A stretch of 63,428 nucleotides of DNA, counting the filler, from Jimgerdemannia flammicorona (lineage: Eukaryota): the NCBI GenBank assembly GCA_003990765.1. It is 3 parts of 3 records of this genome, joined end to end, with 100 filler letters (N's around TTAATTAATTAA, not from the genome) between each part and the next. Parts side by side here need not be neighbours in the genome. Positions count along the whole stretch, not along the records: positions 42,357 to 63,428 come from RBNJ01001542.1; 2 more parts are not named here. One strand, given 5' to 3'. Each line of letters starts with the position of its first letter. Position 1 is the stretch's first letter. A program made the position numbers and the translations under genes. Below, piece by piece: positions 20,920 through 63,428 of the stretch. Under the pieces are notes generated by a model that did not search any database, had not been told where the DNA came from, and saw only the letters and a list, made by a program, of their open reading frames with translations.

Positions 20920-21083
20920 TGTGACGGTACAGCCGAATTTGGAAGAAGGAAATAGGGAATAGACACTTGATCGCACCCATTCCCAAAGTAGTATAGCCTT
21001 ATAGTTAGCAGTCCTCGATTTCGACATTGTCTAATTTCTTAGACATTGTCTAAATTTTAGACATTATCCAAATCGAATACCCC
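20920..21083 (+). mobile_element. 5' part of a Gypsy-B LTR, cut off by the contig end
   Basis: TGTGACGGTACAGCCGAATTTGGAAGAAGGAAATAGGGAATAGACACTTGATCGCACCC... matches the reverse complement of 57915-58060. Confidence 0.93.
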
Positions 21084-21183
21084 NNNNNNNNNNNNNNNNN
21101 NNNNNNNNNNNNNNNNNNNNNNNNNNNTTAATTAATTAANNNNNNNNNNNNNNNNNNNNNNNNNNNNNNNNNNNNNNNNNNNN
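21084..21183. other. Artificial contig linker
   Basis: N44 + TTAATTAATTAA (stops in all six frames) + N44 = 100 bp. Confidence 0.97.
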
Positions 21184-21215
<32 letters not shown>

Positions 21216-28540: not shown

Positions 28541-30222
28541 AGTCTAGTATTTTGGTTATTAGGTTATTGAGGTAATATAGAGTAGTAACAGTTGCTCATA
28601 TTACTGTTCAGAGATTTTGGTTAGAGTAGATACTGGCTATGTATCCTGTCTTTCAGTAATAGAAGTATGCTCTACTTCTTCAGAGTTCATTTCTTTCTTC
28701 TTTAGTAAGTTTCTTAAAGGTACTTGTTCAGAATTTTGAAGCATCTAAGAGATAGATATAAAGGGAGCTCAGGATGCTTCATATTTAAGTTCTTTTTTCT
28801 TAGTTTAAGTTTTTTCCTTATTATTGAATTATCTTCAAGGCATAATTGGTCCAGTTATTAGGATTCACTTGATTATAGTCTTAATTCTTACTAGGTACTA
28901 TTGTTGGTAATTGCAACCAACTAGGTATCTTTATTCTTGAATCTTTCTTGTGAGCCAGTCTGGTAGTATATCAAATGAATGATCTGCTCTTATACTATTT
29001 CATACTTCATTATTGGTAATATATCTTAGGCCAATAGTATTTATGAGTAACTTGAGCTTTGTATAGAAGATTTTAAATTTCACCTTATTATATATATCAA
29101 ATTTGAGATTGCAGAGTTCAACTTGGGATTTAGCAATCAGAGTTTTGTTATGATATTGAGCAATTATGAGTTGTTTGAGCTCAGGGACTATAGGGTGATC
29201 TCTATATTAGGGGCATTATTTTTTATATTTTGAGTAATATATAACTATAGATCAGATGTCCTATGTGAGGGGTTTTTCAGAAAGGGTTCACCACCATTCT
29301 TCAGCAAGTTCTTGAAAGAATATAACAACTCAACAGATATAAGCTATGGTAGTAGCAAAGAGTTGTTTGATAGTATGGTCTTGGTTATTTATCAAAAGAC
29401 AGTCAGCAACTCACTCATTGGTCCATTGGTTGGCTTTGAAATTGGTATCAACTATACTAATGAAGCTTTAGACTTTTTGAATAGTATTATCAAAGATAAG
29501 TAGGCTCAGACTTTTTGTTTGTCAGATCTGTTTAGCTAAAGTAATAATGGTTACTACTATTATAGCTATCTGGGCTGTAAGTTCTAGAATCTGTTAGTTT
29601 GCTATATTATTTACTAGAGGCAGTTAGATTACTAGTAGTAAAGTTATTAATATGACTTGAAGTACTAGTACAGAGTATAATGGTGTTCTTTGAGTCTGTG
29701 TAAGTTGCTTGAGTAACTATTATTGGTCTGATATAAGGGCTTGATAGATAACTATCTGTTGTGCTATAGGTGTGTTTTATCCTAAGAGAGGTATATTATC
29801 TTTGGTAATATATCTGAGATTGAATTCAGTGAGATACTCCTCCTTCTCTTTGCTTTAGTCTCTATATAGTTGGGTTTTTTCAGCATTAAAGTAGATAGTA
29901 TCAGTTGTATATTAGATTTCAGACAAGCTTAATTCAAAAGCTGGTTTAGGTTCAGTATTGGCTTTAGTTTCAGATAGAGTTATAGCTAAGCCTACTTCCA
30001 GCTCAGAGTTTAATTATTGATGAAGGGTTCCTCTGGCTTTTTTTTTTAAGAATATGATGGATCTTGCAATTCTGGAAATGATAGTATAAAGTGGTCTTGG
30101 TCCTAGTATAGTGATAGTCAATAGTTGAGCCACAAGAAGCCATCTTTCTCCAGTACCATTCAGGTTACACAACCTTTGGAAGGTACTCATGACATCGTTT
30201 TTAGAGCAAAGAGACTAACAAC

Positions 30223-32247
30223 ATGACAACCAATAGGCAAGCTGAGGTGCATACTGGGCAGGGTGGCCCAAGCACTTTTGAATGACAGCAAGTTGGGAGG
30301 GACCCAGGCCTGGGGGGGAGTATGAGGGGGCTGCTGGCAGATGGATGAGGAAGGGGTGGAGGTACTAGTAGAGGACAGGGGTCTGGGAGGGCGAGCTTTG
30401 TGGAGATGGTGAAGGAGAAGCAGCAGGTGTCAGGGCTGGAGGGCTGGCTGAGGAGGGGCAAGGAGAATGAGAAGGCAGTGGTGCGGAGGGGAGTAGCCCT
30501 TGGAAGGGGGAGCAGTGAAGCTGGGGGAGTAGCAGCTGGGGGGAGTGTGACTACTGATGGTGACAGAACTACTAATCTGGAAAAAAATCCAGATGTGATG
30601 ACTGTTGGTGAGGCTGAGCAGCTGGGGCTTAGAAGACAAGGAGATTTGGCAGATGGCATGATGGGCCTGGTGGTGGCCCCATTACTCAAGAAATCAATCT
30701 TGGCATTCACAGTTACACTGTACTTCCAGGGCTTAGCAGTGATGGCGAAAATGGTGCTGGGGCTTATTGCTAAGCAGATAGCAGGAGCTGCTTTAGTGAA
30801 GTTTCTGAAGGGACTGGAGGGTGTGGAGGTGAGTTTTGAGGAGACTGAATCACTAGAGGAGGCACTGAAGATTGGGTTGGTGGTTGGGAAGATGTGTGTT
30901 CTGATGGTGAGGTGTTTGAAATGGGATCCAAGGGTGGTCCAGCTGTTGGTGAAAGGAGTGCCCATGGTGATGGCAATGGAGATGAGAAAGAGAGTGGAGG
31001 ATGTCATGGTGGAGTATGGAGAGGTAGTGGATATCAGATTCAGGGTCTGGGAAGGGACCACGCTCAGGACTGGAGACATGGATGTGAGGATTCAGCTGGC
31101 TGAGAAAGAGGCTACTGGGAAGGTGAGAGACTGGCCTTTGGTAATGGTTTGGGGAGTGATCTTGTGCAAGGTGACGAGGGTAAAAGGAAGTGAAGAAGAG
31201 GAAGAAGATCTGTTGAAAGCACTGGAAGAACTGGATGGGGCTGTGGAGTGGTGAGCAAAGGCCTGGAAGACTTTCAAGGAGTTGACACACCTGGAGGTGG
31301 TGGATGGAAAGAGGATTCAAGTGGACAAGGTGTAGTGGGAAAGGGCTCAGGGGCAGAAGAGACAGAAGGATCGGCTGGCTAAACTGGGGGGCAGACCACA
31401 GAAGGATGCAAGTAAGAAGACAAGTGCGGAAGAGGCCAAAGTGAGTGTCTGGGCTGGCGAGAGGAGTAGGAGTGATGGGGTGGAGACAGGGAAGGCAAAA
31501 GAGGTGAAGATTAGCAATCCATATGCTGATGGTACCTTGGAGGTTTGGGATGAGGTCTGGGAGAACTCCCCCACTCCTTCTCCTCTTATCAGATATGGCC
31601 TGGCTTCCAGAAACAAGACTGGGGAGGATGTGACAATGCTGGGGACCCAGCAGGTGAAATTCAGCATTCCGGAGGTAATGAATGGGGATCAAGTAGTGGT
31701 GGCCAGGGAGGAGGAACTGGTGGATGTCCCAGAGGTGTGGGATGAGGATACGAGTGCTGAAGCTGACACCATGATACTGGATGGAGGGAGGCTGGCGACC
31801 CCTGGTGGGAAGGAGGTGGGGAACCTACTTTGGATGTGCTGAATGATGAATAACCTGGCAGCAGAAGAGTTGGGGGAGGTGGACTTATATATAATGGGTG
31901 ATGAGCACTGGGCGAGAATTTTGCAGGGGGAAGGAGTGGTGATGGCACTGAAGGTGGAAATTCTCGCAGTGTATCTGAAGGAGGAAGGGTATGAGGTGGA
32001 CAAGGAGCGGGAGGCAGAGATGGCAGTTATCGCTAGAGAGAGGGCTGAGTACTGTTGGAACAAGTGTCATGGGTTGCAGCTTTGGCAGGAGGCTTGCATC
32101 GAGTACAGAGAGGAGTTTGAGGAGAAGGCCGATGAGGAGATGAATGAGCTGTTGGCTGGATTGGAGGCTCAGAGGGATGAAGAGGAGGAGGTGATGGCAG
32201 AACATAATCTGGACATGGCACAGGAGGAGATGAGCATGGAGCAGTAG
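30223..32247 (+). pseudogene. LINE ORF1 (~675 codons, in-frame stops)
   Basis: ORF-track pieces 30400, 31441 and 31843 share the frame of ATG 30223; homologous translations occur in LINE copies 1 and 2. Confidence 0.85.
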
Positions 32248-32277
32248 AGATCGACTGAGAACAAACCATATTTTATT

Positions 32278-35200
32278 ATGAACAGTACAACTAACATTTT
32301 TTCTTTGAACATAAATGGGCTAAGGGGCGCAGTTAGACATAGGAACATTTTTATTTGGCTGAAGGAATTGGAGGTCGATCTCTTTCTCTTGCAGGATGTC
32401 AGGTGTGAGGATGATTCTGATAGGATGGAATAGACAAAGGAATGGGGTGGTATGGCAATTTGGAACAGCAAGGTCAGGATTCTGGTTCAGAAAGGCAGAG
32501 GGGAGATAAGAGATGTGAGGAGCTGGGGGGAGAGACTGGTCTGGGGTGAGTGGATCCATGCAGGCTGAGAGCCAGTCACAGTTGGCTCCTGATACTGCCC
32601 TACCATGCAGGGGAAGCATGTGGATTGGGTGAAAGGGCTCCAGGAGAGTGGGATTCTTGCTGAGGCTGGGGTGGATATGCTTAGAGGAGATTTCAATATG
32701 GTTTGGGATATACAGTTGGATAGAACTGATGGAGGATGGGGTGCTGAGAGCAGAAGTGGGGGGCTGGTAATGTGGAAGGAAGTTGAAAGGCTAGGAGTGC
32801 TGGTTGATGCTGGTAGGGAGTACTGGGGGGAGAGGAGAGTATATACACATTGGGCTGGAGGCCTGGGGACAAGGATTGACTGGATTCTGATGGCCAACTG
32901 TTGGGGCCATAATGTTTGAAAGGTGCTAGAGATGGAATGGTGTCTGTGGTCAGATTACTGGAGCCTTTTGGAACAGGGGTATTTTGGGAGAAGTGGTGAT
33001 GGGCCTGGACATTGGCACCTAAATTCCTCCTTGTTGGATGATGAGTCTCGGTGGGAGGAGTGGGCAAAAGATATTCAGCTGAAGGTGGAGAACTGGTGGC
33101 AGGAAGGGGCCTCAATTGGAGTTTGGTGGGTGAGGATGAAAGAGATGGCCAGGATGTACTGGAGCAAGGCTAGCAGGGAGGCTGGGAAGCAGTGAAGGTG
33201 GAGAGTACATTGGGCTTCTACTAGATTGGCTAGGCTCCTGGAGGAGTGGGCGAGACTGGCAATAGTGGAAGGTGAAGAGGATTGGAGAATAATGAGGGTA
33301 AAGATGGAGGTTGGAGAACTACAACAGGTGCTGTGAGAAGAGGAAGAGTCAAGGATGCAAGGCCTGGCAGCACAGCTTCATTGGCAGGGGCTGGAGGAAG
33401 GAGAGAGACCTTCCAAGTTTCTCATTAGGATACATCGAGCGAAAAGGGTACAGCAGTGGTGGGAAGGGGTACTTAACTTGGATGGTGTACTAGTGCATGG
33501 TGTACAGGATATCCTTGGAATGCTGAAGGAGTGATGGAGTGGATTGTGGAGTGAGGAGGAGGGTAGGGCAGATGCTACAGCCATTGACCAAATATTAGAG
33601 GATTGGCACCCACTACAAGCTGAGGGACTAGGTGACCTGGTGATGTCTGTAAAGGAGGATGAGATCTGCCAGGTTTTTGCTGTGACAGTCTTGGGTATGG
33701 TACCTGGGGAGGATGGCCTACCCTGGGACTTCTGGAAGTGAATGGTTGGAGTCCTGGGCATGTTGGGGGAGTTGACAGTACTGTGTGACTTTATATTGCA
33801 GTCAGGGAGATGGGTGGGGGAGCAGGATCTTGGGCTGGTGATGCTGCTTTATAAGAACAAAGAAAGGTGAGAGGATTGGAAGAACTGGCAGCTGATAATG
33901 TTGCTAGATATGGACAGAAAGTTGGTGACTAAGGTAGTGGTCACAAGGCTACAGAAGGTAGCCCAGCAAATTGTGGGTGTTGAGCAGAGGGGCTTCATAT
34001 GTAGGGGGTCGGCTTATTAGAGATGGCACAGCCTGGGTACATAGAGTTATTGAAGGTGCTAGGGCCTGTGGACTGGATGGGTGTCTTGTCTTCTTGGACC
34101 AGGAGAAGGTTTATGACTGGGTGTGGCAAGTCTGGCTAGCAAAAGTATTAGATAGAATTGGAGTTCCAGTCCCATTTCAGTCAGCGATGATCAGCCTACT
34201 GGAAGGGAGTAGGGCTGTGCTTATGTGTAATAGGCATAGAGGGGTAGCATTCCCTCTGGGTAGGGGGGTGCCCCAGGGGGACCCACTGTCCCCCATTTTG
34301 TATGCTCTTTCCTTGGAACCTCTAATGGACAGAATTCAGCAGAGAATAGTGGGGCTCTCTATCTATGGAGTTGGCTGGAAAGTTGGGGCCTTTGCAGATG
34401 ACATGGTGGTTGGTTTGGGAGTGATTGCTGATGTTGAGGAGCTCAAGAAGACAGTGGAGTGGTATGAGGAGAACTCTGGGGTGAAGCTGAATTGGCATAA
34501 GTGTGAAACAATGGTGCTGGGCAATGGCCTGGTGGGAGGAGAGGTTATTGGAACAATTGTTCCCACTGGGGAGGCAGTGCAGTACTTGGACATCTATTTG
34601 TCAGTCTATGGGTCTGTTCTGTCCAGGCTGTGGTGGGAGCAGAGAGTTGGAATTTGAGAGGAGGACCTGTGGGGTTGGGGGGGAAGACACTTCTCTCTGG
34701 CAGAAAGGATCTCGATTTTGAATGTATACTGGCTGCTGAAGCTATAGTATTTGGCTTATCATCTGGACTTCCTAGCCTGGGTGGTGAAGAGATTGGTGAA
34801 GATGGCCAAGGGATGGATTTGGGCTGGCAGACAGAGTCAGATTGGTTGGGAGACCTTGTCCCTACCAGTGGCAAGAGGTGGTCTTAGGCTAGTGGACTTC
34901 CCCAAATGACTATACTGCTTGAGGGCATGGTGGCTTAAGAGGGTGGCAGAGTTGCATGGAGGGGGTTGGGTTCTCCTGCTGCAGAAGGTCTGGGAGAGGT
35001 GGTTATCACCAAGAGGCTCGACTGGTGATCTTCTCTTATTAGTTGGGCTTCAGAACACTGCATAATTGCGATATAAAGGCTTCTAGTAGGGGATAGCAGA
35101 GGGGGCAAACTACATTGGTATTCGCTGGCAAGGGAATGAGGGGGAGAGGACTTGGGACCTGACAATGTGGTGATGGGATGGCATTCTACTGGGCAGCATA

Positions 35201-35938
35201 TCTTTACCTGAGTTAGACATTGGTGATAGAGTAGAATGCCAAAGGGGACTGGGCCAGGATCTGTGGCCTAGTGGTTGGTAAGGAGTTGGAATTGGAGAGG
35301 AGTGGGACTGGCATGGGGTTTGGACCTAGAGTGCTGCAGTGAAAAAATGGATGCCACTGAAGTACTGGGTGGTCTAGTGGCATGTGCTGAGGAGGAATGT
35401 GATGCTTAACTTCTGCTCAGGACACCTTGTCATAGGGGGCTGCTTTGACTGTGAGGAGTGCCATAATGTAGGGCAGGAAGAGAGATTTGTACAGATGCCA
35501 GAACATTGGCTAGGAGAGTGTGAGGTGTTGGGAGACTTTTGGCAGGCCATTGGGGACCACTTGGGGGTGAGGCATAGGGGAGATGATGTATGAGGGAGGT
35601 GGGAGGACCTGAGGGATTAATTGGTAGGAGGGGTAGGGGTGGAGTAAATTACCTTAGGCTGGGCATTGGCTATTTGGGTTGGGCTGACCAGTCACTGGCT
35701 ATTTGTGTTTGAGGAGGAGAGGTGATAGAGCTTGGGGAGCCAGTTATCATAATGGCAGTGCCTTATGGAGGACACCTTGACAGGCTGGTGGCTTGGTTGG
35801 GGGCTGCAGGGGGATCAGAGGCACTGCTTGGTGGTGAAAATCTGTGGTCAGAGTGATGGGAGAGTTGGAGTCATTGGTGAGAGGGTGGTCTTTATATGTG
35901 AAGAGGTGGAGAGGGGCCCTCCTATGGGGATCGGATAG
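32278..35938 (+). pseudogene. LINE ORF2 (APE endonuclease, reverse transcriptase, C-terminal Cys/His region)
   Basis: MNSTTNIFSLNINGLR; GDFN; RIDW; SDYW; PGEDGLP; LDQEKVYD; GVPQGDPLSP; AFADD; C-terminal CEEC...H...C. Confidence 0.93.
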
Positions 35939-35997
35939 TGGGTGGTGATATTGTATACTTATTCATAGACTGGTAATAAAGATGGAGTCTAAGTGAC

Positions 35998-36040
<43 letters not shown>

Positions 36041-38618: not shown

Positions 38619-41097
38619 GTCTCGCAGATTTTTATTAGAAGAGAACCTAGACTATATAGATCAAAACTCTCTCATACCACTCACCAAACACTACATCTCT
38701 ATTAAACCTAAGCTAGCTATTGTTCAGTAGCTCAACTATATCAGATACAGTAGGACAAAGTTGTCTGTACCTTATTTTGTATATCATACTCTTCCTACTA
38801 TCAGAGAGTAAACAACCATATATCCATAACTGAAAGTATATTTCCAAAATCCCAATATATGTACAAGATTACATTCAAGCTAATTCACATAGTCTCTATT
38901 ACCTCAAGGAGAGTGATAGACAAAGAAATACTCTTCTCAAAGTATAGAATAGTGGATAGGATCTGGTTCTCTTTGATGAGATGAGTAGAGAACTTATATG
39001 TAAGATAAGAGAAGACCTCCAATATTCCACTACTCAAGTCTATAGACCTTGATCATATTGCTATATCAGCTTCTAGGTTTAGTTAAGTATAGCCAAGACA
39101 TCTGATCCAGGTAGTCTCAAGCCCTCTGATCACTCCTAATGACTGGGACCTAATTCCACATATTATCAAAAGTAGTCAAGAGTGATATCTACTATCTAAC
39201 TACTCTGTACCAATCAGAAGGCCCAACCAATGTAGTACCTACCCCAGCCCCAATGACTACCCCCAATCTGACATCCTACTGGTTTACTTTAATCACTCTT
39301 TTTCTTATCTATAATAGTCATCTCTTCTCCCATCTCAATCCTATCTAAAAAACAGTTATCTATACCAGTATTGTTCCCATCAGAAAGCTCATCAAAGCTC
39401 AGAGGGCCCTACTACAGATACCAAAGATCTGCAGATAATCTATACTAATATTTGATATCTAAGATCAGCTAATACTTTATATAGTCTATGATATATCAAG
39501 ATGATATCTTGTTAATAATAGTAAAAGAAAGAAGATGTTGTACCAAAATGTATATATCCCAGATATAGTCAGAGATACCAGAGACTGCAAAAAATTAGAG
39601 AAAGTACTGATCCAATACTAATAAAGAGACAACTTATTATCATTATCTCTCTCTCTCTATATTCTTATAGATATAGCAAACTAATCTGAGATAGAGGAAG
39701 TAAAAGTAGAGAGAAGAGAACTCAGAAGATCACTTATCTATCTTATAACTAGTATGGTAGCAGAGAAAGGGCCATTGTATATATACTTAAGAAGAGAGAT
39801 AATAAAGTTAAGATTTAAAATAAGTAAGCCAAGAGATCTCTAAAAGATTCTCAAGATCTATAATCTAGAAGATGATGTCCTGGCTCTCATCAGATATATA
39901 ACTCATTAAGGATGGATAGAAGATATGTACTATCAACTTTATAGAAGTCTTAGACTCTATTGAAAAAAGTGATATTAGTTACCTTTAAGATCTCTTTATA
40001 GGAGCCAAATGACTATATCTCAATATTAGAGCTTAGAGACTCATAACTATAGAAGTCTCAGCCCAAGGATAACCTGCACTTAGTAAGAATATTACATAAT
40101 ATATCTTGCTATATTTTGAAGTCATTTCTCTAACAAAAGTCTACAACAAAAATATAGACTATAATCTCTATAGTCTCTGAGATATAACTATGAACTCTAA
40201 AAGTATAGTATTTATTACTATAGAACTTTTCATACAACTATCTAAGAGAACTTATATCTAGCTAATCTCAAGATCTGAACTTACAAAATAAGAAGTAACT
40301 ATCAAAGGAGAATCTATAGATCTTAAATATATAGAAAAAATTAAAGTAATCTTAAAAAATAGTAGCTCTAAATAGATTTAAATCTACAAAGATGAAAAAG
40401 TCATCCAAATAGTCTTTATGGAAGTCAAAGTACCCCAGCTATAAGAAGTCTCTAAACTTATCTAAGATATAAGACAGACTAAAAAATTTACAAGCTTAGA
40501 TAAAAAAGAAACATATCTTCTCTATCTCAATATATACTACCAATTAGTTAAACTTTACAAAAACCTTATCTTAGAACTAAGAGTACAGACTATCTTCACA
40601 ATCTTTATTCCATCAGACTCTAGAAATCTCTTTTTTAAACTAAATAAAGACTCAGAAATCTTAATATAAAAGAATATATATTCTCTAATAAGATGAATCC
40701 AGTATATTCTTGAGCAATCAATTAAAGCTGAGACAGTATCATTCTGCTAAAAAGAACTATTATAGGATATTTAGTACTTTACTTTAATTAGATATATATA
40801 TAGAGAAGTCTATAAACTAAATCTATTAAGAAATAGTAAAAGGTCTCAAAAGAAAGAAAAGGCCCCTCTGTGATCTAGGAGAAAGTAAAGTCTTCTACTA
40901 ATATTAAAGAAGAACTGATATCTCAGTAATAATATCAACTAGTAGAACTTCTTCATAAATATCAAGATATCTTTACTACAGACTATAGTAATCTACTATA
41001 TAATCTATTATACTATACTAAGTATAAATATAGAAAATACAACACTCATTCAATAGAACCCCTATAGAATACTACACTATCTAAAGATATTTAAGAA
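38619..41097 (+). mobile_element. Heavily decayed unclassified repeat, possibly the 5' end/ORF1 of a second LINE family
   Basis: 38619-39775 is homologous to the reverse complement of 41098-42256; there is only weak resemblance to LINE ORF1. Confidence 0.5.
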
Positions 41098-42256
41098 ACA
41101 GCTCCTTTCTCCACTACCTTACTGGTCACAAGGTTTGGTAGGCGACCTTCCAAGTCCCCTTTCCCCTAATATTACACCCTCTACCTCAGGTTAGTTTGCT
41201 ATGCCTGCAGGGGCATGATGGGAGGAGGGCAATGGTGATGAGTTGCCCCTTTATCGGTGTCGGATCATTGCTTCCTCCACTTTTTCGCGGATTCTGGTGC
41301 CTTCAGCTGTGTCTGGGGTATACCCGTTTTGGTGCGGCACCTTCTTCCTTTTGCCGTCGCCAATAAGGAGTTATTTTGGTGTGTCTCGGGCTATGTAGGG
41401 AGTTGGCTGACCTTGGGCATCAAGTGCTCAGTGTAGGTTACCTGCAGGTCCTCGGTGCCTGTGGTGGGGCCCTCTGGCTTTGGCGAGCTTCCCGGCAAGC
41501 GTGGTTCTGGCGTAGGTGACTGCTTTTTGGGTGTTGTCAGGATGGGAGGGGAGATGGCCATCACAGATAGGCAGAAGGGCGATTACAGTGAACCAGTAGG
41601 GTGCCAGGCTGGGGGCAGTCATCGGGGTTGGGGCAGGTGCTGCTTCAGTGGGACCTTTTGATTGGTGCGGCATGGTTAGGTGGTAGGTGTCACTATCGGC
41701 TTCTTTTGGCGGTCAGTGGGGTTGGGCCCCAGTTGTCAGGGGGGGTCAGGAGGCCCGAGGCTACCCATTTCAGGCATCTTGGCTGCACTCAACTGGAATT
41801 GGGAGCTGATACGGCAATGTGATCGAGGCCTACAGGCTTGAGTAGTGGGGTATTGGGGGTCTCCTCCCACCTCACATGTAAGTCCTTTACTCACCTCAAT
41901 TGGGAGAACCAGGCCCTACCCACCGTGTTGTACTTTGATGAGGGTTTTTTATTTGCCTGTCATTCTCTTTGGGGTGGCAGAGACTATTCTATTTAGCTCG
42001 GGTGTGGCCTTGTACATATGTTGGGTTCTCAGGCATACGCTTTTGGTTGTTGGCATATGGTTGGATTTCCCCTGGTAGTAGGGAGAGCATGGTGTGCAGA
42101 ATGAGGTGCGGGCTTATTAGCCCTGCTGTGCCTGGTATGGTCGAGCTGCTGGACAATAGCTAGCCTAGGTTAATGGGGGGGCAGTGCTTGGTGGGTGGTG
42201 GGGGAGGGTTTTGGCCTATATAGTCTAGGTTCCCTTCCAATAAAAATCCGCGGGAC
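41098..42256 (-). mobile_element. Less decayed inverted copy of the 38619 repeat
   Basis: Reverse complement starts GTCCCGCGGATTTTTATTGGAAGGGAACCTAGACTATATAGG versus GTCTCGCAGATTTTTATTAGAAGAGAACCTAGACTATATAGA at 38619. Confidence 0.7.
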
Positions 42257-42356
42257 NNNNNNNNNNNNNNNNNNNNNNNNNNNNNNNNNNNNNNNNNNNN
42301 TTAATTAATTAANNNNNNNNNNNNNNNNNNNNNNNNNNNNNNNNNNNNNNNNNNNN
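42257..42356. other. Artificial contig linker
   Basis: N44-TTAATTAATTAA-N44. Confidence 0.97.
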
Positions 42357-42400
42357 TTTTTTGACGACGTGAAGTGTCGAGCCGCCCAACGACACCGATA

Positions 42401-42620
42401 TGCACATGGACAACGCCCTCCAGCCTATCCCCACACCGTCCGCAGCGGACCACCCGTCTCGGCGGTATCATCCACTGCAGTGATCGAGCCACACATGTGC
42501 ACATGGACGATGCCGCTCCAGCCTATCCCCACGCCTGCCCGCAGCGGACCACATATCTCCTGCCGTCTCGGCGGTATCATCCACTGCAATGATCGAGCAA
42601 CTCAACGACACAGATGTGCT
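42401..42620. repeat. ~100-bp tandem duplication, CpG-rich
   Basis: TGCACATGGAC...CTCCAGCCTATCCCCAC...GCAGCGGACCAC...CCGTCTCGGCGGTATCATCCACTGCA.TGATCGAGC occurs twice. Confidence 0.85.
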
Positions 42621-43420
42621 CCCAATCTACCTCCCCCCCCCCGCCACCCACGACAGACCATACACCCCTTGCCGTTTTGGCGGAAGCACTCGCTGAATCC
42701 GTTGCCTTCCCCCGAAACAATCTCAGACGTAATAGAAGATGTGGGGACCGGCGTACCCGTCCAGCAGATCATTATATTCCTACTATCTCGGCGGATCCCT
42801 CCTACCATCCCTCTATTGAACCGGTTGTGCCGCCACCGATAGTAAATGCGGGGAGAGAGTCGTTCCATAAGGGAAAAATCACGCCAACTGAAGAGAAAGA
42901 GCGCGAAGTTTGAACCCCGTCCTTATCCGAAGTACAAGGTTTAGACAATCCACTGGACCGCTGAAGAATTCATGCGTCATTGGAAAACATCGATTCTGGC
43001 TCCATCGACAGACCCGCCAAGCAGATTGGAGATGGGGATTTTCTATTGTCCGAGTTTAGCAACAGGCCAGCGGTGCTGTTAACGGAACTGCGGTGTGCAT
43101 GAGCATCTGTGTTCCCGTCCATGACGCCTTCGCCAGGTCGTCGGAGAGACTCGTGTTATCAGTTCGGGTACCAACTAATGGCAAAACCCTCGAAGAACAG
43201 GGGGTGGGCGGGGTGACAGAGGCGCTTTGTTTCTGATAGCCGACGGTGTGTTTGAAGCATTGGGTTTTTGTATATTTGGGCATTCACTTTGTTCGAAGCC
43301 CATCTTCTCCGTATTTCTTACAATCGGCGATCCTTCACTGAAGATATCGACCCCTCCGGCAATTTCGAAGCCGACAAACCACCGACGAACTGACCCAACT
43401 AGCGATATGCTTGCGATTCA

Positions 43421-44130
43421 ATGATGGTTCAAGCCGTCATTTGTGATGCAACGGAGGAAATCGAGCACCTTCGATGGTCAGAAGGCATCATTGCCACACT
43501 GAGTGAAGAAGTTGATTCCGCTGATTGTCACATCCCGCAAGTCCGAAGGGCAAACAAGGTACACCTTTCTCATGTCCGACATATCATCCCTCATCTAAAG
43601 GATTATGGTCAAATGGCCATTAAAATGCAGGATTTCTTGTTTCTCTGCTTGGCTGAACAGTTTGGTATCTGTACAGTTAAAGGTACCGAGGAACTTGCAC
43701 AATTGGCTATGTGCATATCAGAAGAGACATATGGCAACCTGGGCATATACGACGAGGCGGAGTCACTGTACAAACGGACGCTAATGACCAGCCAGAAAGC
43801 TTTTGGACCAGAGAACAATCTGACCACGACCAGGGCAAATACTTAAGGGCAGAGCTGCTAAACGAGCTAGCGCTGGAGATCTGTGAAAAGATGTTGCAAC
43901 CAAAATCACCCACACACGGCAACATCTATCAACAATCTTGTAGACCTCTACAGTAGTCAGGGAAATTTGGACAAGACGGAGCCGCTGTACGAAAGAGCGC
44001 TGGAGATTAGAGAGAAAGCGTTGGGATCAGAGCACCAGAAACGTCATCAACTCTGAACAATCTGGCTCAACTACGACAGCTGTGGAAAGTGTGACAGGGC
44101 AGAGCAGGTGTACGAGCGGGCACTGACCAT
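43421..44130 (+). pseudogene. Kinesin-light-chain-type TPR repeat protein remnant (type found at the C-terminus of fungal NLR-like proteins)
   Basis: YGNLGIYDEAESLYKRTL..SQKAFGPE; ALEICEKML; NNLVDLYSSQGNLDKTEPLYERALEIREKALGSEH; TLNNLAQ, spread over several frames. Confidence 0.85.
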
Positions 44131-46620
44131 AATAGACATACCTAAAGTGTTTGTCGCCCGGTGAATAAATATCTCGACGGTCATGAGCATGTCGTCCAAC
44201 GGAAACGAGAACAACACTATTTCGATCTGAATAGGAACAGGAATCAACGACCATTGATGGCTGGCCTGTCAATATGAGTATGTAGTGGATATGCGCAATT
44301 GTGATTGTCGAGGAGTTGAAGGCTGGTTGTCTGTTCACCTGTTTAGTAATCCATTGTAAAGATGCGCTATCGCTGACGATTTTTGGCCCTCTTATTCAGT
44401 GACGCAAGTAGATATCATTCTTCATTATTCTATCTTGATTTATATCAATAATATTTTATATATATGCAAAAGATGAAATCTCTAAATTGTTCACGCCCTT
44501 TGTTAACTTGAGATAGAGGATGAAATGAATGATATTATTTACGATGGTGCTAGCGATGGGCAAAATGAGGGCGAACAATGTGGAAAGTAAATTTACAGTG
44601 TGATGACATTAAAAAAAAATACGCGCGGCCAATGTTGTTTGCTTACGTGTTCATCTCGCCGCACGAGCTTCCTCTCCTGCTTCGCCTCCTATATCCCTAA
44701 TTCACCTATAATCTACTCCCAAATCACCTGTCCAGCCAGACATTATCGAATGTTACATCTGTTGTTTTTCTTCTTTTTCACACTGCCAGAGCGGGCGAGG
44801 TCCACGCACTCCCTATTGGCCCTGATCATCCGGCCGACCAAGTAAAAGGACGTCTCCACATTGACGTCGTGCTTGCCCGAGACCTCTTAGAATTCTAAAC
44901 CCGTTCCGATGCGCCATACTGTTGACAGATATACTTGAGAGGTTACAGATAATATATATCTTGGGTAGGTAGAGTTTATGCTGATAATGTAGATAAATAT
45001 GTTAAAGCTACTTGACAAAGTATGATATGTTAGATATATAAATTATTCTTATATTATAAAAAGAATTACTCAAGCTACTTCATTATGAAAGAGAGATTAC
45101 TAATAGAGAGAATGTTCTGTTCTAATAAAGACTATACTGATATAAGTTATTAATATACTTAAGTTATTTGAATAAATAAGAGAGTTATAGATAGATTGAA
45201 TATTTTAATCAAATAGAGATTATACTAACACTATAGAGAGATATACTTAAGCTACTTAATAAAATTAAGTGAAATTATAATCTTCTCAAATATCGAAGTT
45301 CTGAACCTTTTTTTAAATAAAGAGTTTATAATATTACTTACTTTATATAAGTGTAAAAGAGAGAAACTAATTAATTAGATTTATATATAAATTTAAAATA
45401 TATATATATATATAATATTTAAATAGATATAAAGTAAAGTATATAAAGAGTATATATCCAAAAGAAATATAGATCAAGTAAGTAAGTTTTAACATATATA
45501 AAAAGCTTAAATATCTAGATCTATTATTTATATAAAGTAAAGAGATTTGTTTTTTATAGTCTCTAATCTATAAAGAAAAATAGAGAGATATATAAATAGA
45601 TTATAGTATAAATAACTAATTGCTAAATTATTAACTTATTAAATTACTAGTAGAGTATTATAAATTTTTAGATCTATAATAATATACTTATTTGCTAAAA
45701 CATATTGAGTTACTCTATATATAAAGATATTACTAACTATATTTTATATAGAGCTAGTATAAGGCTGAACTCAGCATTAAACTAAATTATAAGAAGTGAA
45801 ATCATAGAGATACTAAATCTAATATATATAATTACTTAAATATTAAGTAGATCTGACTACTTTGCTAAAGTTTGAATTATATTTATAATTTATCAAAGTA
45901 TTTTTATATAGTATTATAATATACTAGTTCAATATAGATAAATTATAAGATTGGTAGTTAATATAGTTTGACTTAAGCCTCTAGTTACTTTGTTAAAAAG
46001 CAATAAAATATTGTAAGATTTTTGGATCCTTATTGATATTTAGTAGTATAATAGTTAAGTCTGAATACAGTCATTAATTTGTATTATTAGGATAGTTCTT
46101 AAGTATAGTGGTGATTTATATAATAGCAAAATGATCTTTATATAATATAATATTCTTTAAAAGTATGTGATTTCTAATATAATGAACTTTTATAGTATGA
46201 GTGAATTCCTTATATGATTTCTGTATAATAATCTTATATAGTGTAAGCAGATTTCTTATATAATTTCTATATGATAATCTTATTCATTATATGGTCAATT
46301 AGTAGTATTTCTTAATAGATGATAGGCTGATAAATTGGACAAAGAACTTAGTTTGGTAAATAACTCAGATAATAATTCAGATAATACTGATTCTTCCTAA
46401 ATTGTTAAATTACTTGAAAATAGTAGTTGATATAGATAACTTGATAACTCAGATTAGTACTTCTAAATAAATTGAATCAATTCAAATTAAATTTGTTAGA
46501 ATGGCAACTCAATATATCAATATATAATTAGTGATTTCATTAGTCTTATATCATCTATCAGTAATATGTGAAATACACATTCCATGTAAGTTTAATAAAA
46601 ATGCCCCTCTTTTGGATAAA

Positions 46621-51105: not shown

Positions 51106-51868
51106 TTCTGATTAATTATGGAATACTTTTCAAACTGTTAAAAGTCTCTCATATTACATTCTATATCCATATATTGATAATATCCCTCATCTATGAGTGG
51201 ATTATGTGGATAATATTATATTATATTTTTGCAAATATTTCAGGTATTTTGGAATACTTTTCAATCTACAAAAATTTCTTAAATATAGGATTTTATATAT
51301 ATATTTAGTTTTTAGATTATATGCAGTTCTAGTTCTGTATTTCTTTTTTGAGTATATTGTATATGCCTTGTATATTGTAACATAGCGGATACTTACTCTT
51401 GAAAGTACATCAGATTTCTGTATCTTGAAAACTTGACTGTTCTGACTCTTGCAGAGTCTCTTGAAGTTGCAGGGGAGGGGGGGTGAGTTCGAAGTGTATC
51501 TGCCCACAGGTTTATTAGTTCCTTTGCTATCTCTTTGCTTTGAACTATTTCGATCTGAGGTTTGATACTGGGTTATTTATACAAGTTTGCTAGCTATGAG
51601 ATGGTTACTGAGTTATGTGACTAAGTTATGAGTCATTTAACACTTTGCAAAATGTTCAGCAAGTTGCAAAATGCTATACTATATCGGAGAGCTCAATCTT
51701 GCACTTTGCGAAATATTTAGCAAGTTGCAAAATCGAGAACTGTTAACTATGTGGCTATACTACTTTGGGACTGGGTGCGATCAAGTGTCTATTCCCTATT
51801 TCCTTCTTCTAAATCTGGCTATACCATCACAACTTCCTCCTGAATAGATGATCTCGTCCCTAAAGCAT

Positions 51869-52330
51869 CTATTCAAACTCCCAAGCTTCAATGGTCTGTA
51901 TGGTCTTGTATTGTGTAATTTGTTGTATCACTATTTCCCAATGGTGTCATCTGACTCAGTCGAAGTCTGAGGGAGTCACTCCTTGCAGGTGGGCTAGTGC
52001 TGATTCATCCTCTCGGAATAGCTTGTGGATTCTTTTGGCAATAGTGATCTGGAAATAGGAGAGCTGACATTCTGTGATCCAGTTTTCTTTAGTCATTTCT
52101 GGGTCTTGGTTGAGTACTTGGCCAAGTTTGAAGTACTCTTGGAATTCGTTCTGATGCTGATAGGCCTTGAAGTGTGAGATCTGAGAGAGATGAGTCTGCA
52201 CAATACTTTGGATACTATCATAAGACTCCTCTATGGTCGGAGGCTCAGTGGTGCACCATTGTCTCTCGATGGCTCTTTGGGCAGCACTAGTGATCTTGAG
52301 TGCCATCATAGTACTTTTGTTACTGGCCAT
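51869..52330 (-). pseudogene. Gypsy B accessory ORF between integrase and PPT; unknown function
   Basis: Own ATG and own frame; 124 aa open, extendable to ~154 codons through two TGA codons (probable CGA). Confidence 0.75.
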
Positions 52331-57491: not shown

Positions 57492-59515
57492 CTTGTCTGG
57501 GTATTGGGGCTCGGTTTGTATGGTGGTGGTTGTTCGTTGTTCAGCTTGAAAGTGAGGGATTCATCTTGAATCACCAGCCAATGGGCACCAAGTTGTAATG
57601 TAGCAGACACTTACTCTTGAAAGTACATCAGATTTCTGTATCTTGAAAACTTGACTGTTCTGACTCTCGCAGAGTCTCTTGAAGTGGCAGGGGAGGGTGG
57701 GTGAGTTTGAAGTATATCTGCCCACAGGCTTACTAGTTCCTTTGCTATCTCTTTGCTTTGAACTATTTCGATCTGAGGTTTATTCACTCAAAGATACTGG
57801 GTTATTTATACAAGTTTGCTAGCTATGAGATGGCTACTGAGTTATGCAGCTAAATTATGAGTCATTTGGACTTTGTCGAAACATTTGGACAATGTCTAAA
57901 TGCTATACTAAATCGGAGTATCTGATTTGGATAATGTTTAAGAATTTAGACAATGTCGAAATCGAGGACTGCTAACTATAAGGCTATACTACTTTGGGAA
58001 TGGGTGCGATCAAGTGTCTATTCCCTATTTCCTTCTTCCAAATCTGGCTGTACTGTCACAATATATAGTATAATATATAGTATTTAAGTAGTTCTTCTAA
58101 TTGTTCAGAGAGTTATAGTCTTAGACTATATTGGTAGTATTTTGGAGATTTGTTCTGAGTTCCTATATGATATTATCGATAGAATATTCTTTTTATTTAA
58201 CTATATATTCAGAGTAGTTCTTGGGTCCACATTTATTTAACTTTGTATTTCTCATAATCATTAATAGTAATAAATATATATGGTTTTTTAATTTAATTAA
58301 AAAATAACTTATTATCATTATCATTATATTGCTTAAGATATTGAATAATGAAGACAAAATGAATCTTAATAGTATCTGATAAGACTAGTTTGTAGAATAT
58401 TAGAGAAATATGAATAAATTTACTATTTGGCTTTGTAAAGAGTCTATACTTAAAGTTATTAACTCAGTATTCTTATATATCTAGTAGGATTTTTTTTTTA
58501 CAAATATTAAAGAATTCTTTTCATTAGTACTAATTAATATACTAAAATTATTGATTTAAGCTTAAGATAGATTTTCATTTGCAATTTGGCTCAAGTTGTA
58601 TGTAGAGAGTTTATTAATAGTTTTGATCAGAGTTAGAGGGGTGTTCAGATTTTGTTCTATGTTAGCAAAGAATGGGGTCATTCTAAGAAAAACTTGATTA
58701 CTATTAATATAGATAAACTCAATCGTAATAATTATTTATCAAAAAAAAAATTTAGTTTATTTTTTTAGTTTGGCTATTAGTTTCAGAGTAAAAAGCAGTA
58801 AAGAATACTAGTTTCATTCTAAGGTATGCAAGTAGGGCTTTCCAGATATAACTGGTGAATTTCAGATCTTAGTTATAAATAATAATCTTAGAGAGATCAT
58901 GATATATAATAGAAGATATTATTGAATAGGAGAGTAGCAATTTTAGATACTATTGTGATTATAGTAGTAGATATAAAGTAGGTTTGTTTGATAATATATT
59001 CTTTGAGATAATAATTATATTTTTCTTATTATTGATTTGAGATAACAGTATAATGAAGTTCATAGAGATTTATTTCCAATTAGTAGAGAATACTGAAATA
59101 GAGTAGAGTAATCTGAGTTTTGTTAAAGTTGAAGACTTGTTATACTATATTCTAAGAAGTGATATAGATTTTTAATTGATCTGACATTTGAGATCAATAG
59201 AGATTTTAGGAGATAATTTTATAGTATTTGTCAAATTTTAGATATCTAGCTATAGGGACATTATAGTATATAATGTAACGGTGATCCCAGAATGATGACA
59301 TCAGCACAGGAGACAGCCTTTCCTTATAAGCCACCAGATCAGAGCACAAGAAGATCATATGGAATATGAGATAAGCAATGATGACCAACTGTAAGTCATT
59401 GTGACCATAGCATAAGTATTCTGAAGAATATAAAAGAAGAATCAAGGAACTACAGTAGCAGTAACCAACAAGAACCACCAATCCCAAAATAGCTCAAAGA
59501 CTTACCACAAACAAA

Positions 59516-60316
59516 ATGCCTGCTGCCTGCCAAATCTCAAGGTCAAGGAATCATCAAGGTATCTTGATCAAGGAAAGGATGTTCCAAGACATCAGAAGAG
59601 CTATGAGGACCCACTCAAGAAGGACTCCTAGTGTCAACCTGGGTACTACAGACCCTTATCACTTTATTCTCTACTGCTGCGAAATGGAAACAAGGATCAC
59701 CATTGCTACCGAATGCCTCCAAATGTGACAGGAGTATGAAATAGAAAACCTCCTCTGCTGGGAATTCCCACAGACCAGCACCCAAGAGCTACAAGATACC
59801 ACTCCCATGAATATACGTGAAATAAGGACAGCTAGGAAGATCCCTCAAATCTTCAGGCATGTACCATAGTTGATCCCCAACTTGAAGTATGTTAGAGTCT
59901 CAGATTTCAGAGACCTATCATTCCACCATATCAATGCACTAGAAGCCAGGGTGGCTACAGAAGCCCAGTCCACTATCACTCTCAACAGCGAAGAAGTAGA
60001 AGACTTCTGGCACCCTATCCTCCAGGACAACCCAGATCAATTCTTGCAAGGATTGATCTCAGTATTCTAAGGCCCAAGCATCCAGATTAGATCTTCCCAA
60101 GACCCCACATTTGTTCCTTATTTTGTGGAAGAGAACCTCATAGACTGGAGAGCTCCAGACCTTGTCCCCAATTTCCCTGCCACAGCCAAATGTGATGACA
60201 TCATTGATGACATCATTCCATGTAACATTGAAGTATGTGAAAATGATGAATTTGTGGATCTCATCTCCTTCAGTGATGATGATGAAGCCCCCATAATTCT
60301 GAACTTTCTGCTCTAA
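59516..60316 (+). pseudogene. Accessory ORF inside the putative LTR of Gypsy B2 (267 codons, three in-frame stops)
   Basis: ORF-track pieces 59516, 59870 and 60125 share one frame, and the stops are single C>T derivable. Contains IRTARKIPQIFRHVP*LIPNLKYVRVSDF. Confidence 0.75.
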
Positions 60317-60883
60317 GTTCTTTGTTATACTGGATAATGCCAGCACCAGTATTCTCATGTAACACTAGATAATACCAGCACTAGCATTTTGAGGTGACGC
60401 GAAATTGTTCCAGTACTGGTATTTTGATGTGATACTAAATAATGCCAGCCCTGGAACTTAGTAGTTTTAGTTATTGAAATTTATATTTAGCTTTATATCT
60501 TAGCAACTATTGAATTATATTTTGTATAAATACCTCTCTTATTTTCTCTGAAATAAAGTCAGTCTTCTCAGTACAATATATACACTTCCTTGCAAGCAAT
60601 CTAAGAGATAATAAGACAGTTAAAGATAAGAAGTTTGAGGACTATAAGACCTTGGGAAGGCACTCCAATAAGAACTTACTTATAACAAACTTGAGTTAGT
60701 CTAAGAGATATACCTTGAAGAGAATCTGGTATATTTGAAGGACTCAGTGACCACTACATGACAACTTGGTGCCCATTGGCTGGTGATTTATGACAAATCC
60801 CTCAGTTTCAAGCTGAAAAACGAACAACCCCCATAATAACTACCCTGACTACAAGAGTCACCCCTGCAAGAATTCAAGACAAG

Positions 60884-63428
60884 ATGGAAATGTGCCCCCC
60901 CACATTCTATGGATATACTACTGAAGAGTTAATCCTGACCTTTATTGAAGACTTTGAACATTTTACCACCATACAAGCCATTGGTGTAGATGCTCAATTG
61001 GCCCTTCTACCAGTCAGCCTCAGAGGACCTGCCAGAAATAAGTTTAATGCAGCCACCATTGCTGGTACAGATGCAGTCAAACTTGCCAACATGAAGACCT
61101 TCCTCAGAACAACATATTATATCGAAGAGATCAAGCAAGCTCTCAAGGATCAACTCAATACTATCTGCCAGGGACTTAGTGAAGATCCCAACTCATTCAA
61201 TACCCGAATCTGCCATCAGATTGTCTTGGCTGGCTATGATGATGCCCTCAAGGAACAAATAGCAGATTCAACCTTCCTTAAAGGAGTTCACCCTGAAATT
61301 ACCCTAGCAATTCAGTCTACCCCAGCTGTACTGATCCTTGATCAGAAAGTGGTCTTTACACAGAGATATTGGACTGCCAGATACCCTGCTGAACACTCAA
61401 TGGAGAAAATAACTGGCATAAAGATGGAGCCATCAAAGCCAACTAGTATCTTACCTGCCACAGTTGTAAACAGACAACCAACCCCACCTACCCCCAAGAC
61501 AGCTAAAGCTGACCCAGTGGAAGAACCTGCCAAGCAGTTCGCTGAGATGACTGCACACCTTGGTGATGTTGTTAGAGAAGTCTGAAGTGCCAACAGGAGA
61601 CTAGTGCAGAGATTTGCAGCTGCTACAGAAGAATGCAATATCACATGTTTCAGATGTGGAGAAGAAGGCCACTATGCAAAGAGTTGCATGACTGAAACAA
61701 GACACAAAGCCCAACCAAGCAATACTAGCAGAACTAGAGAACAAACTAATACAGTAGTCATTGAGGAGATCAGTGATACTAATGATGAAGAATACTATGA
61801 GGAGCTCAAATTCTACCCTGCTACTGAAGGTACCAGCACCCAGTCCAAGCCCTATAACAAGAAGAGCAACAGCAAGCCAGTTGGAAGACCAAAAAAGACT
61901 CCAGCTGTCACTATTCAAAGTAAGACCCAATATGAGGAGATTGATCAAGACATGGAGTTAGATGAGGCTGCCTGCCAAAATATCAAAGGTACTACTCCAG
62001 TCTCAGGAGAAAGTGAGAGCAAGAAGGAACAGAAGCTGCATAAGACTAAGATCCACCAGTATGATATCTACAAGGACCTCAAGGAACAGAAGGTCAATGC
62101 CACTTTTGGGCAGCTAGCTGAAGTCCCTGCCTTCAGACAGCAGTTGAGAGTAGGACTTACAACTACTGTCAAGAATCAAGAGTACAAGATTGTAGAAGCT
62201 CACAATGCACAAGAAGAATCTGAGAACTCAGGTGAAGAATCCGAAGACCAGCACAAGACATCAGCCTATACCCTCTGTCAGATCGAAGACTGTATCTTTG
62301 ATGCCATCATGATACTAGTGCCAGAGGATGCCTCATGAGTAAGAAGGCAATTGACCACCTAGGTTGGGATATTGAAGAGTCCACCAAGATGGTCTATGTC
62401 ACAGCAGATGGTACACAAGCTACCCCCCTTGGCAAAATCCAAGAAGTCCCCATCAAAATAGGAGGAGCTACCATCTCAGTAGATGTGATTGCTACAAGTG
62501 CCACCAACTATGACATCCTCATTGGCAACCAATGGCTTCACAAGGCCAAGGCCATCATTGACCTCAATGTCCAGAAGATGCAGATCAACTACAGAGGAAG
62601 AAAGATACGAGTTTCTATCAATGTCCACAAAGGAGTCCTGCCAGACATGGAGGAAGGAGATAAAGAAGACACAGAGGTCTTCATGTACTTGGTGAACAAG
62701 AATAAGAACAAGACACCCAAGCTCACAGATGAGCAGTGGTATAACAAGATCATCGATGGGTATGCCCCTCAAGGAAGATGCCCCCATGGTACTAGAATGT
62801 ACTGCTCTGAACACCTGAATGACTGCTGGTCCTATATCAGCGAAGTCAGGAAAATCTGCCAATGGAAATACAAGCAAGAAGCTACCGAAGCAAAAAGAAA
62901 AGCTGAAGAAGATGACCAGCCCCCAGAGCTTCAAGCTGACAGTGACAATGAGGAGGAACAAGAATCAGACATTACCCTCAAGGTCAAGAAGTTTTACCCT
63001 GAAGCCAAGATCCCAGAATACAAGATTGAAGGAGCCATAGGAATGGACCTTGCCAGCATTCAAGATGCTACCCTCGAACCACAGACCACCACCCTACTTG
63101 GCACTGGAATTAGAGTCAAGTTACCAGAAAACTATGCCAGAATTATCAAGACCAGGAGCAGTCTGGCCAAAAGTGAAATCTCAGTTGAAGGAGGAGTAAT
63201 TGACCCTGATTACACTGGTGAGATTTTTCTTATAGTCAGAAATCACAACCACATCACCCCCTTCAAAGTCAAGAAGCATGACAGGATTGGCCAGATGCTG
63301 ATCCACGAAATCAAGAAGCCCAAGATCATAGAGGCCACTGAACTTATCAAGACCAAGAGAGGAGAACAAGGCTTTGGATCTACTGGAAGAGGATCCTATG
63401 CTACCACCAAGATTACCGAACTTGAGCA
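60884..63428 (+). pseudogene. Gypsy B2 gag-PR-dUTPase (partial)
   Basis: Gag homologous to B; CFRCGEEGHYAKSC ~61646; frameshifted protease AI(I)DTSA ~62305; dUTPase GMDL, TRSSLA, GGVIDPDYTGEI, DRIGQ, RGEQGFGSTG at 62975-63390. Confidence 0.93.

Follow-up and report, generated by a model that had tools for sequence, protein, structure and literature searches.

In the window, i.e., the whole stretch of 63,428 nucleotides of Jimgerdemannia flammicorona DNA that is analysed here, the segment 59274-60763 very probably represents the 1490-nt 5' LTR of a Ty3/Gypsy element, B2, with a complete accessory gene lying in its U3 region. Along the plus strand the start of the LTR at 59274 is followed by the whole ORF at 59516-60316 and then by the TATA box at 60523. 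In a sibling element on the minus strand of the window, Gypsy B, a homologous ORF (ORF3) is internal. An intact version of the B2 ORF, with 323 codons, is present in a divergent metagenome contig of 1345 nt (L001), which is used in several of the comparisons below. The features of the two elements are collected in Table 1.

Table 1. Features of elements B2 and Gypsy B, with positions along the window
Feature	Position	Strand	Remarks
B2 5' LTR	59274-60763	+	1490 nt, TGTAACG...CATGACA; start uncertain by one base either way
B2 TATA-like box GAATATAAAAG	59426-59436	+	candidate promoter, lying 90 nt before the ATG
B2 U3 accessory ORF	59516-60316	+	801 nt, 266 codons plus TAA; nonsense codons at 59726, 59867, 60068
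B2 35-nt tandem units	60323-60462	+	between ORF stop and TATA box; three detected, a fourth by eye
B2 main LTR TATA box TGTATAAATACC	60523-60534	+	shared by L001 and the two Gypsy B LTRs
B2 poly(A) signal AATAAA	60552-60557	+	adjoins the probable U3/R border
B2 primer-binding site (PBS) TGGTGCCCATTGGCTGGT	60767-60784	+	18/18 bases common to Gypsy B
B2 gag (CCHC), protease and dUTPase	60884-63428	+	element cut by the window end
Gypsy B 3' LTR	51375-51831	-	457 nt; aligned with the 5' LTR
Gypsy B polypurine tract (PPT)	51832-51846	-	TATTCAGGAGGAAG (51833-51846) plus T (51832), up to the LTR start
Gypsy B internal ORF3	51869-52330	-	two premature stops; its homologue in B2 is the N-terminal domain of the U3 ORF
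Gypsy B 5' LTR	57594-58060	-	467 nt

It was claimed in an earlier note on this DNA that an LTR begins with TGTAAC at 59274 and passes through a TATA box and a poly(A) signal to a CA end followed by a PBS, and all these landmarks are indeed present at those places. The 5' terminus is TGTAAC, and the 3' terminus, ...CATGACA at 60763, is followed by ACT and then by the PBS, TGGTGCCCATTGG / TGGTGCCC.... The end of the LTR is homologous to that of the Gypsy B LTR, and behind the PBS and gag the Pfam domains zf-CCHC, RVP_2 and dUTPase are found, with the window end preceding the RT. Since the DNA before 59274 is an unrelated flank (AT-rich, with 23% GC) while PBS and gag come after the repeat, the copy in the window has the signature of a 5' LTR. 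It is noted that the 3' end of B2 lies beyond 63428 and that within the window B2 is represented by its 5' LTR side only; blastn of 59000-61000 against the window matches the PBS region of Gypsy B only, with no second B2 LTR, and tblastx within the window gives nothing significant for the B2 LTR region.

Other copies of the segment are available as contigs from four soil-metagenome runs (X1-X4) of three studies, the runs having been picked with the LTR as the query. In all four runs the contigs that match from 59273 onward, ten of them listed, have a polypurine tract ahead of the match: the unmatched end before 59273 reads ...GATCCTTATTCAGGAGGAAG in X1 (4 contigs), X2 (3 contigs) and X4 (1 contig, with 209 letters upstream), and a variant, ...GTCAGGAGAAAG, is present in X3 (2 contigs). 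The 14-mer TATTCAGGAGGAAG occurs exactly once in the window, one base ahead of the Gypsy B 3' LTR, where it makes up the PPT of that element. With a PPT directly before 59273/59274, those other copies bear the signature of a 3' LTR at this place; the segment from 59274 is thus seen in both LTR contexts, with a PPT ahead of it in other copies and with PBS and gag behind it in the window. From the polypurine junctions in the four runs and the identity of the 14-mer with the PPT of Gypsy B, the start at 59274 that had been read by eye is substantiated, and it would follow that the LTR is 59274-60763 and that the gene lies wholly in U3. The TG...CA ends, the PBS after the 5' LTR and the PPT before the 3' LTR are all found for B2, the last from other copies, and in a full-length B2 the 3' LTR copy would come after ...AGGAGGAAG(A). 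Note also that the PPT-junction contigs are short, the longest listed covering 59273-59450 and ending before the ATG, and that the continuity from the PPT to the ORF rests on the window sequence and on its overlap with L001. In each of the four runs, contig depth summed over the ORF comes to roughly double the value for gag-pol (990-1576 vs 432-759 in X1); this is weak evidence, since contig depth cannot rank the parts of a stretch and the LTR had served to choose the runs. The region 60150-60479 has low contig cover and is hypervariable, and nothing is concluded from it.

Because the LTRs of Gypsy B are short, an alternative has been considered in which the true LTR of B2 is also short, about 440 nt from 60323, with the ORF being an internal 3' gene of an upstream tandem element that is cut at 59274. 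Such a layout would resemble that of Gypsy B, where the LTR is just 457-467 nt long and the homologous ORF3 is internal, and it would be in line both with the alignment of 60320-60763 along the whole Gypsy B LTR beyond its first 17 nt and with the LTR-start-like opening of 60323, TGTTATACTGG...GCCAG (TGTTAT). However, it needs a truncation that falls exactly at 59273/59274, the PPT/TG junction that the other copies show and that is homologous to the proven PPT-LTR junction of Gypsy B; the purine tract is absent before 60323; and no pol remnant is found by tblastx or blastn upstream of 59274 or in 59274-59515. Moreover, a short LTR starting after 60316, an outcome that the earlier note had set against its own reading, was looked for among the contig ends and not found, there being no PPT-like junction near 60322 among 24 of the 304 entries for loose contig ends. 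We consider the short LTR highly improbable. As for the stretch between the ORF and the TATA box, which was said to contain neither a PPT-like tract nor another LTR start, the former part holds and the latter does not quite, as LTR-start-like tandem units of 35 nt are present at 60323-60462.

With the 1490-nt LTR as the preferred reading, the order of its parts is a terminus of about 17 nt, a leader of 225 nt, the ORF, the 35-nt units, the TATA box, AATAAA, U5 and then the PBS, and L001 shares the order of the cassette, i.e., GAATATAAAAG, ATG, ORF, repeats, TGTATAAATACC and AATAAA. Compared with the LTR of Gypsy B, the B2 LTR aligns over the first 17 nt and again, colinearly, over 60320-60763, where the match is strongest around the TATA box, around the poly(A) signal and at the end of U5; the extra of about 1.03 kb that stands between these two parts, just after the first 17 nt, is the gene cassette. 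The repeat region 60323-60462 can be aligned to U3 of the LTR of Gypsy B. The three detected 35-nt copies start at 60323, 60358 and 60428, a degenerate fourth being visible by eye between the second and the third, and read by eye they open with TGTTAT, TGTAAC and TGTGAT, in the pattern TGTxAy...CCAG, so that these openings look like the LTR start. One contig skips 38 nt within the repeat region, which suggests copy-number variation of the units. Their role may be that of enhancers or response elements, or they may be left over from an older LTR start.

The ORF itself had been described beforehand as a single frame with three stops, each one transition away from a sense codon, and this is confirmed, with 266 codons and a stop. 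The internal stops are TGA at 59726-59728, TAG at 59867-59869 and TAA at 60068-60070 (two G>A and one C>T on the plus strand), where the relatives that cover the position read W (3/3), W (5/5) and Q (6/6), respectively, and where the metagenome contigs nearly always have G at 59728 and C at 60068 (depths of 1046/1049 and 2313/2533 in X1). The remaining five frames of 59516-60316 contain 9-25 stops each, and mononucleotide shuffles of the sequence give 13.9 stops on average, with three or fewer in 2 of 5000. A protein search gives six relatives, all of them intact, with E values from 1e-34 to 1e-120 and identities of 56-81%, one of which is full length (271 aa); a profile search over 1.84 billion representatives lists no more than six proteins, of which P0009-P0013 are the five new ones, and the metagenome scan gives one locus, L001. 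As regards the purifying selection for which a dN/dS estimate had been proposed as a check, the comparison of the window ORF with L001 over 262 codons yields dN/dS of 0.19 (NG86), 0.33 (LWL85) and 0.42 (YN00), in accord with such selection, and the identities at codon positions 1-3 are 0.66, 0.74 and 0.52, the third being the lowest. Among the indels listed (with 17 further rows beyond them), two of the three inside the ORF are of +3 or +6 nt, in the acidic tail, and the third is a minority +1 frameshift, while in the non-coding 60562-60687 all seven are of 1 or 4 nt. None of the 679 candidates in a search for longer proteins is a fused form, which is weak evidence, and in viral contigs five stretches passed tblastn but no locus resulted, with no match there to a degenerate DNA pattern for the motif YFVEEN.IDWR.

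Taken as comparative sequence evidence, these data indicate that the U3 ORF is a maintained gene and not a chance frame, and that the gene family is alive elsewhere and under purifying selection. The copy in the window is dead, with three nonsense transitions. RIP was considered as the source of the stops and rejected, as there is no CpA bias in the private changes of the window copy: of the 40 best-supported differences (with 737 further), the window copy shows a C>T or G>A change at 27, with A following just 4 of the 16 C>T and T preceding just 4 of the 11 G>A. The composite RIP index of the B2 LTR is 1.47.

Gypsy B, which offers the nearest comparison in the window, is complete, with the LTR homology starting sharply at TGTGAYRG, with PBS and PPT both within the window, and with a possible 4-bp target-site duplication, ATAT, that is weak, lying in AT-rich DNA. 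Its pol contains, by Pfam, RVT_1, RT_RNaseH, Integrase_H2C2 and rve in this order, and no chromodomain is visible after the integrase in the tblastx reading. Judged by the CCHC of gag, the protease and the order of pol, B2 and Gypsy B are both assigned to Ty3/Gypsy (Metaviridae). ORF3 is located between the integrase and the PPT; its intact relatives reach 153 aa (the longest being P0014), and P0014 terminates at a stop that is present in the window copy, 22 nt before the PPT.

A resemblance between the U3 ORF and the 3' ORF of Gypsy B was noticed by eye in the earlier note. In pairwise form it is weak (BLASTP, 32% over 37 aa, E 3e-4 in a single comparison), but the profiles back it: hmmsearch with the U3 family profile on the six-frame translated window finds 51911-52306 on the minus strand (E 1.3e-6), and hhalign of the same profile gives 93.2% against the single ORF3 sequence and 93.7%, with E 1.9e-7 over 115 columns that include the whole helical domain, against the ORF3 family profile, the level of identity being just 20%. 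The two genes are thus most reasonably regarded as being of common ancestry, the U3 protein extending about 115 residues beyond the part common with ORF3. ORF3 lies upstream of the PPT of its element and the B2 ORF does not; from the homology and the positions together it would follow that one and the same domain precedes the PPT in the lineage of Gypsy B and lies within U3 in that of B2, i.e., that the gene and the LTR boundary have shifted relative to each other. The proposal that an accessory gene was absorbed into the LTR is hence supported as a relationship, and the LTR-start-like motif at 60323 would fit a jump of the PPT/LTR boundary over an older internal gene.

The homologue in another element lineage, Gypsy B and its relatives, bears also on the alternative that the ORF is a fragment of a host or foreign gene, carried in the LTR as a decaying passenger and having no role for the element. 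The three stops in the window copy could be understood in this way, as could the lack of any known retroelement domain among those found and the lack of relationship to the gag of the element. Besides the homologue, however, the ORF is intact in relatives down to 59% amino-acid identity with dN/dS below 0.5, L001 carries the identical cassette layout, and the relatives are found in short, high-copy contigs only. A passenger of this kind is improbable. An origin of the U3 ORF from gag was rejected, as hhalign gives a probability of 0.06% against the gag of the element.

The protein resembles no known family or fold in the profile and fold searches that had been suggested as a check. Pfam gives nothing at E <= 1 for P0001 and P0002 and no family at E <= 0.01 for 13 members of the U3 family (with two stray matches at E 0.026-0.028); the PDB sequence search gives no match at E <= 1; Foldseek against the PDB gives none at E <= 1e-3 (best E 1.4); VIA-align over 48,161 chains gives a best Z of 4.4, which is inside the noise for helical models; and the best entry in the ESM Atlas has a score of 0.83, with a pLDDT of 0.35 for that entry's own model. 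In the intact P0004, residues 1-60 have a pI of 11.8 with 13 K+R, and the last 56 residues, 216-271, hold 17 D+E. The AF2 model was built from 13 sequences and reaches a mean pLDDT of 60; a helical domain at about residues 15-163 has block means of 55-94, mostly above 73, and the C-terminal half is below 50 despite its invariant motifs. The protein is therefore predicted to begin with a basic N-terminus, to continue with a helical domain and conserved linear motifs, and to end in an acidic tail. Because of the basic head, the acidic tail and the helical domain, we infer a nuclear regulator; among its possible functions, we would choose, with considerable doubt, a transactivator acting on the 35-nt repeats, an antagonist of silencing or an RNA-export adaptor being the alternatives.

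Other ORFs of the window were searched as well. For 18 of them Pfam gives a non-LTR RT, a DUF2470 (E 2e-6, above the curated cutoff) and a weak TPR match. By eye, the ORF 4099-4998 on the minus strand contains a CX2CX6C motif; the Atlas clusters closest to it are from Ascomycota, with scores of 0.92 and 0.90, and a Zn_clus cluster is found at 0.85. As no more than a lead, these clusters point to a fungal, perhaps ascomycete, host.

Based on the layout described above, a mechanism can be proposed for the gene in U3. Reverse transcription would place U3 at both ends of the element, and thus the gene would be present twice in each insertion and once in a solo LTR. The gene would be transcribed from its own TATA box at 59426 and the transcript would end at the LTR poly(A) signal, giving an mRNA of about 1.1 kb; its own TATA box together with the LTR poly(A) would make every LTR a gene complete in itself. 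The protein would be a nuclear one that regulates the element, and by duplication of the LTR this regulator would spread through the genome. In its full form, i.e., with each LTR being an autonomous gene that includes response repeats, with the solo LTRs that outlast the interior of the element still expressing a nuclear regulator that trans-activates or shields all copies of the family, and with the arrangement born from a jump of the PPT/LTR boundary across an internal ORF3, the proposal is offered tentatively and is on the whole unlikely to be right in every part.

Another scenario is that the gene is read from a spliced subgenomic RNA of the 3' LTR, in the style of sag or nef, and serves in anti-silencing or RNA export. 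In the standard LTR life cycle U3 sits at the 3' end of the genomic RNA, as this scenario requires, and the protein has an Arg-rich N-terminus and a Leu-rich terminus, LNFLL. Moreover, the homologue in Gypsy B has no TATA box upstream of its ATG, and thus ORF3 must be expressed by other means. By contrast, the 11-mer GAATATAAAAG, 90 nt before the ATG of the B2 gene, is identical in L001 although the adjacent bases differ, which speaks for a promoter of its own. Reading from a spliced RNA is a possibility to be taken seriously, if still somewhat against expectation.

Retrotransposon LTRs are usually regarded as non-coding control regions. If the layout with the gene in U3 is general for the family, the solo LTRs would be potential genes, and TE annotation that masks LTRs would hide a real, selected gene family. 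In addition, B2 and Gypsy B side by side, with the gene downstream of the PPT in one and upstream in the other, form a natural before-and-after pair, which is useful for the study of the movement of LTR boundaries and of the gain of retrovirus-like complexity by retroelements. An orphan U3 protein with strongly conserved short motifs is also a tractable object for studying self-regulation or evasion of silencing by fungal retroelements.

The additional ORFs (aORFs) of Ty3/Gypsy elements, such as those of plants, are functionally uncharacterised extra genes, often lineage-specific orphans, and the described ones occupy either the stretch from the LTR to gag or the one from pol to the 3' LTR (PMC7264820); in the portion of that review covered by a term search, the phrases 'in the LTR', 'within the LTR' and 'inside the LTR' are absent. 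An extra gene of a fungal Gypsy element is brtn of Botrytis Boty/BcGypsy1 (10.1101/2021.04.13.439636). PosPlaTy3-5 of Postia is reported to have a dUTPase between the protease and the RT, and a dUTPase is also reported in Gypsy elements of Tuber (Tmt1) and Phanerochaete (PMC2864245); in the passages of the same paper on these dUTPase-bearing fungal elements an LTR gene is not mentioned. Like PosPlaTy3-5, B2 has its dUTPase after the protease, as found by Pfam. ORF3 of Gypsy B is of the internal aORF kind, whereas the gene of B2 differs in being inside the LTR. Full-text searches revealed no gene wholly inside the LTR of an LTR retrotransposon, which does not prove its absence in print, and the term 'LTR ORF' leads almost exclusively to papers on MMTV.

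A few complex retroviruses are marked out by carrying genes inside U3. The foamy-virus tas/bet and HIV/SIV nef are 3' accessory genes that start upstream of the PPT and run into U3; the foamy viruses have an internal promoter, and their Tas, which carries an acidic activation domain, works on U3 as a transactivator. Unlike tas/bet and nef, with their partial overlap with U3, the B2 gene comes in its entirety, together with its leader, after the LTR start, and no similarity to tas/bet or nef is detected by Pfam, Foldseek, VIA-align or the PDB sequence search. In MMTV, sag is an ORF of several hundred codons lying wholly in U3, upstream of the TATA box, in an LTR of well over 1 kb, and it is consequently duplicated at both ends of the provirus; the Sag protein is a type II membrane protein. 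Pfam on the 13 members, the PDB sequences and Foldseek reveal no similarity to Sag in sequence or fold. The host of MMTV is a mammal while that of B2 is a probable fungus; unlike MMTV, B2 is an env-less Ty3/Gypsy retrotransposon; its protein, unlike Sag, looks soluble, its head being basic and its tail acidic; and a conserved TATA-like box right upstream of the ORF, another difference from sag, suggests a promoter of its own. Like sag, the gene of B2 lies whole within the U3 of an LTR of more than 1 kb and precedes the TATA box; apart from B2, such an arrangement is known chiefly from retroviruses, MMTV among them.

It is noted that the internal 3' ORF (ORF3) of Gypsy B, the sibling element of the Ty3/Gypsy element B2, has nine intact relatives of 98-153 aa, all from short contigs, with a Pfam domain recorded for none of the nine; Gypsy B ORF3 is a member of a separate orphan family. 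Two other open frames in the window (see the table) are described here. The plus-strand frame contains four tandem peptide units of ~32 aa each, which contain ...SDPVGSDGRRHFVEMQAVDRLGLNLRL..., and gives a match to DUF2470 with an E of 2e-6 and 28.7 bits, above the curated cutoff, with no individual stretch passing alone. A CX2CX6C motif in the 300-codon minus-strand frame resembles the first half of a Zn2Cys6 cluster. Pfam gives no match for this frame, whose nearest clusters in the ESM Atlas are from Ascomycota.

Positions and base composition of features in the window
Feature	Position	Strand	GC	GC skew
Open frame, tandem units	3239-3691	+
Open frame, CX2CX6C	4099-4998	-
~6-kb block	21000-27000		44-53%	about -0.5
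~6-kb block	30000-36000		44-53%	about +0.45
RVT_1 (Pfam)	33962-34654
Gypsy B ORF3	51869-52330	-

In the composition scan of the window, the GC skew is extreme in the two ~6-kb blocks and opposite in sign between them, and together they look like an inverted pair. The positively skewed block includes a reverse transcriptase of the non-LTR kind, matched by RVT_1 at E 5.5e-19. The composition count gives 88 N within the negatively skewed block and also 88 N within 41001-44500. An open frame at 42309 begins with a run of 15 X; the N's and the X run are probably assembly gaps.

The AT-rich blocks, 58061-59273 among them, have 19-30% GC and a TpA/ApT of 0.93-1.10, and adjoin 50%-GC blocks and both Gypsy copies. 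Both of these neighbouring copies are little mutated. The private changes of the B2 copy are mostly transitions and lack CpA bias.

For the U3 protein, the predicted product of the accessory ORF inside the B2 LTR, five stretches in the viral contig collection passed tblastn as relatives, but no locus was recovered from them. L001, a 1345-nt metagenome contig with a divergent intact relative of this ORF, carries at 1041-1215, between the ORF and the TATA box, short repeats of TAGTTAGT and TTAGCC types, as read by eye. This set differs from that at the same place in the B2 LTR; what is kept between L001 and the B2 LTR is the repeat architecture rather than the repeat sequence.
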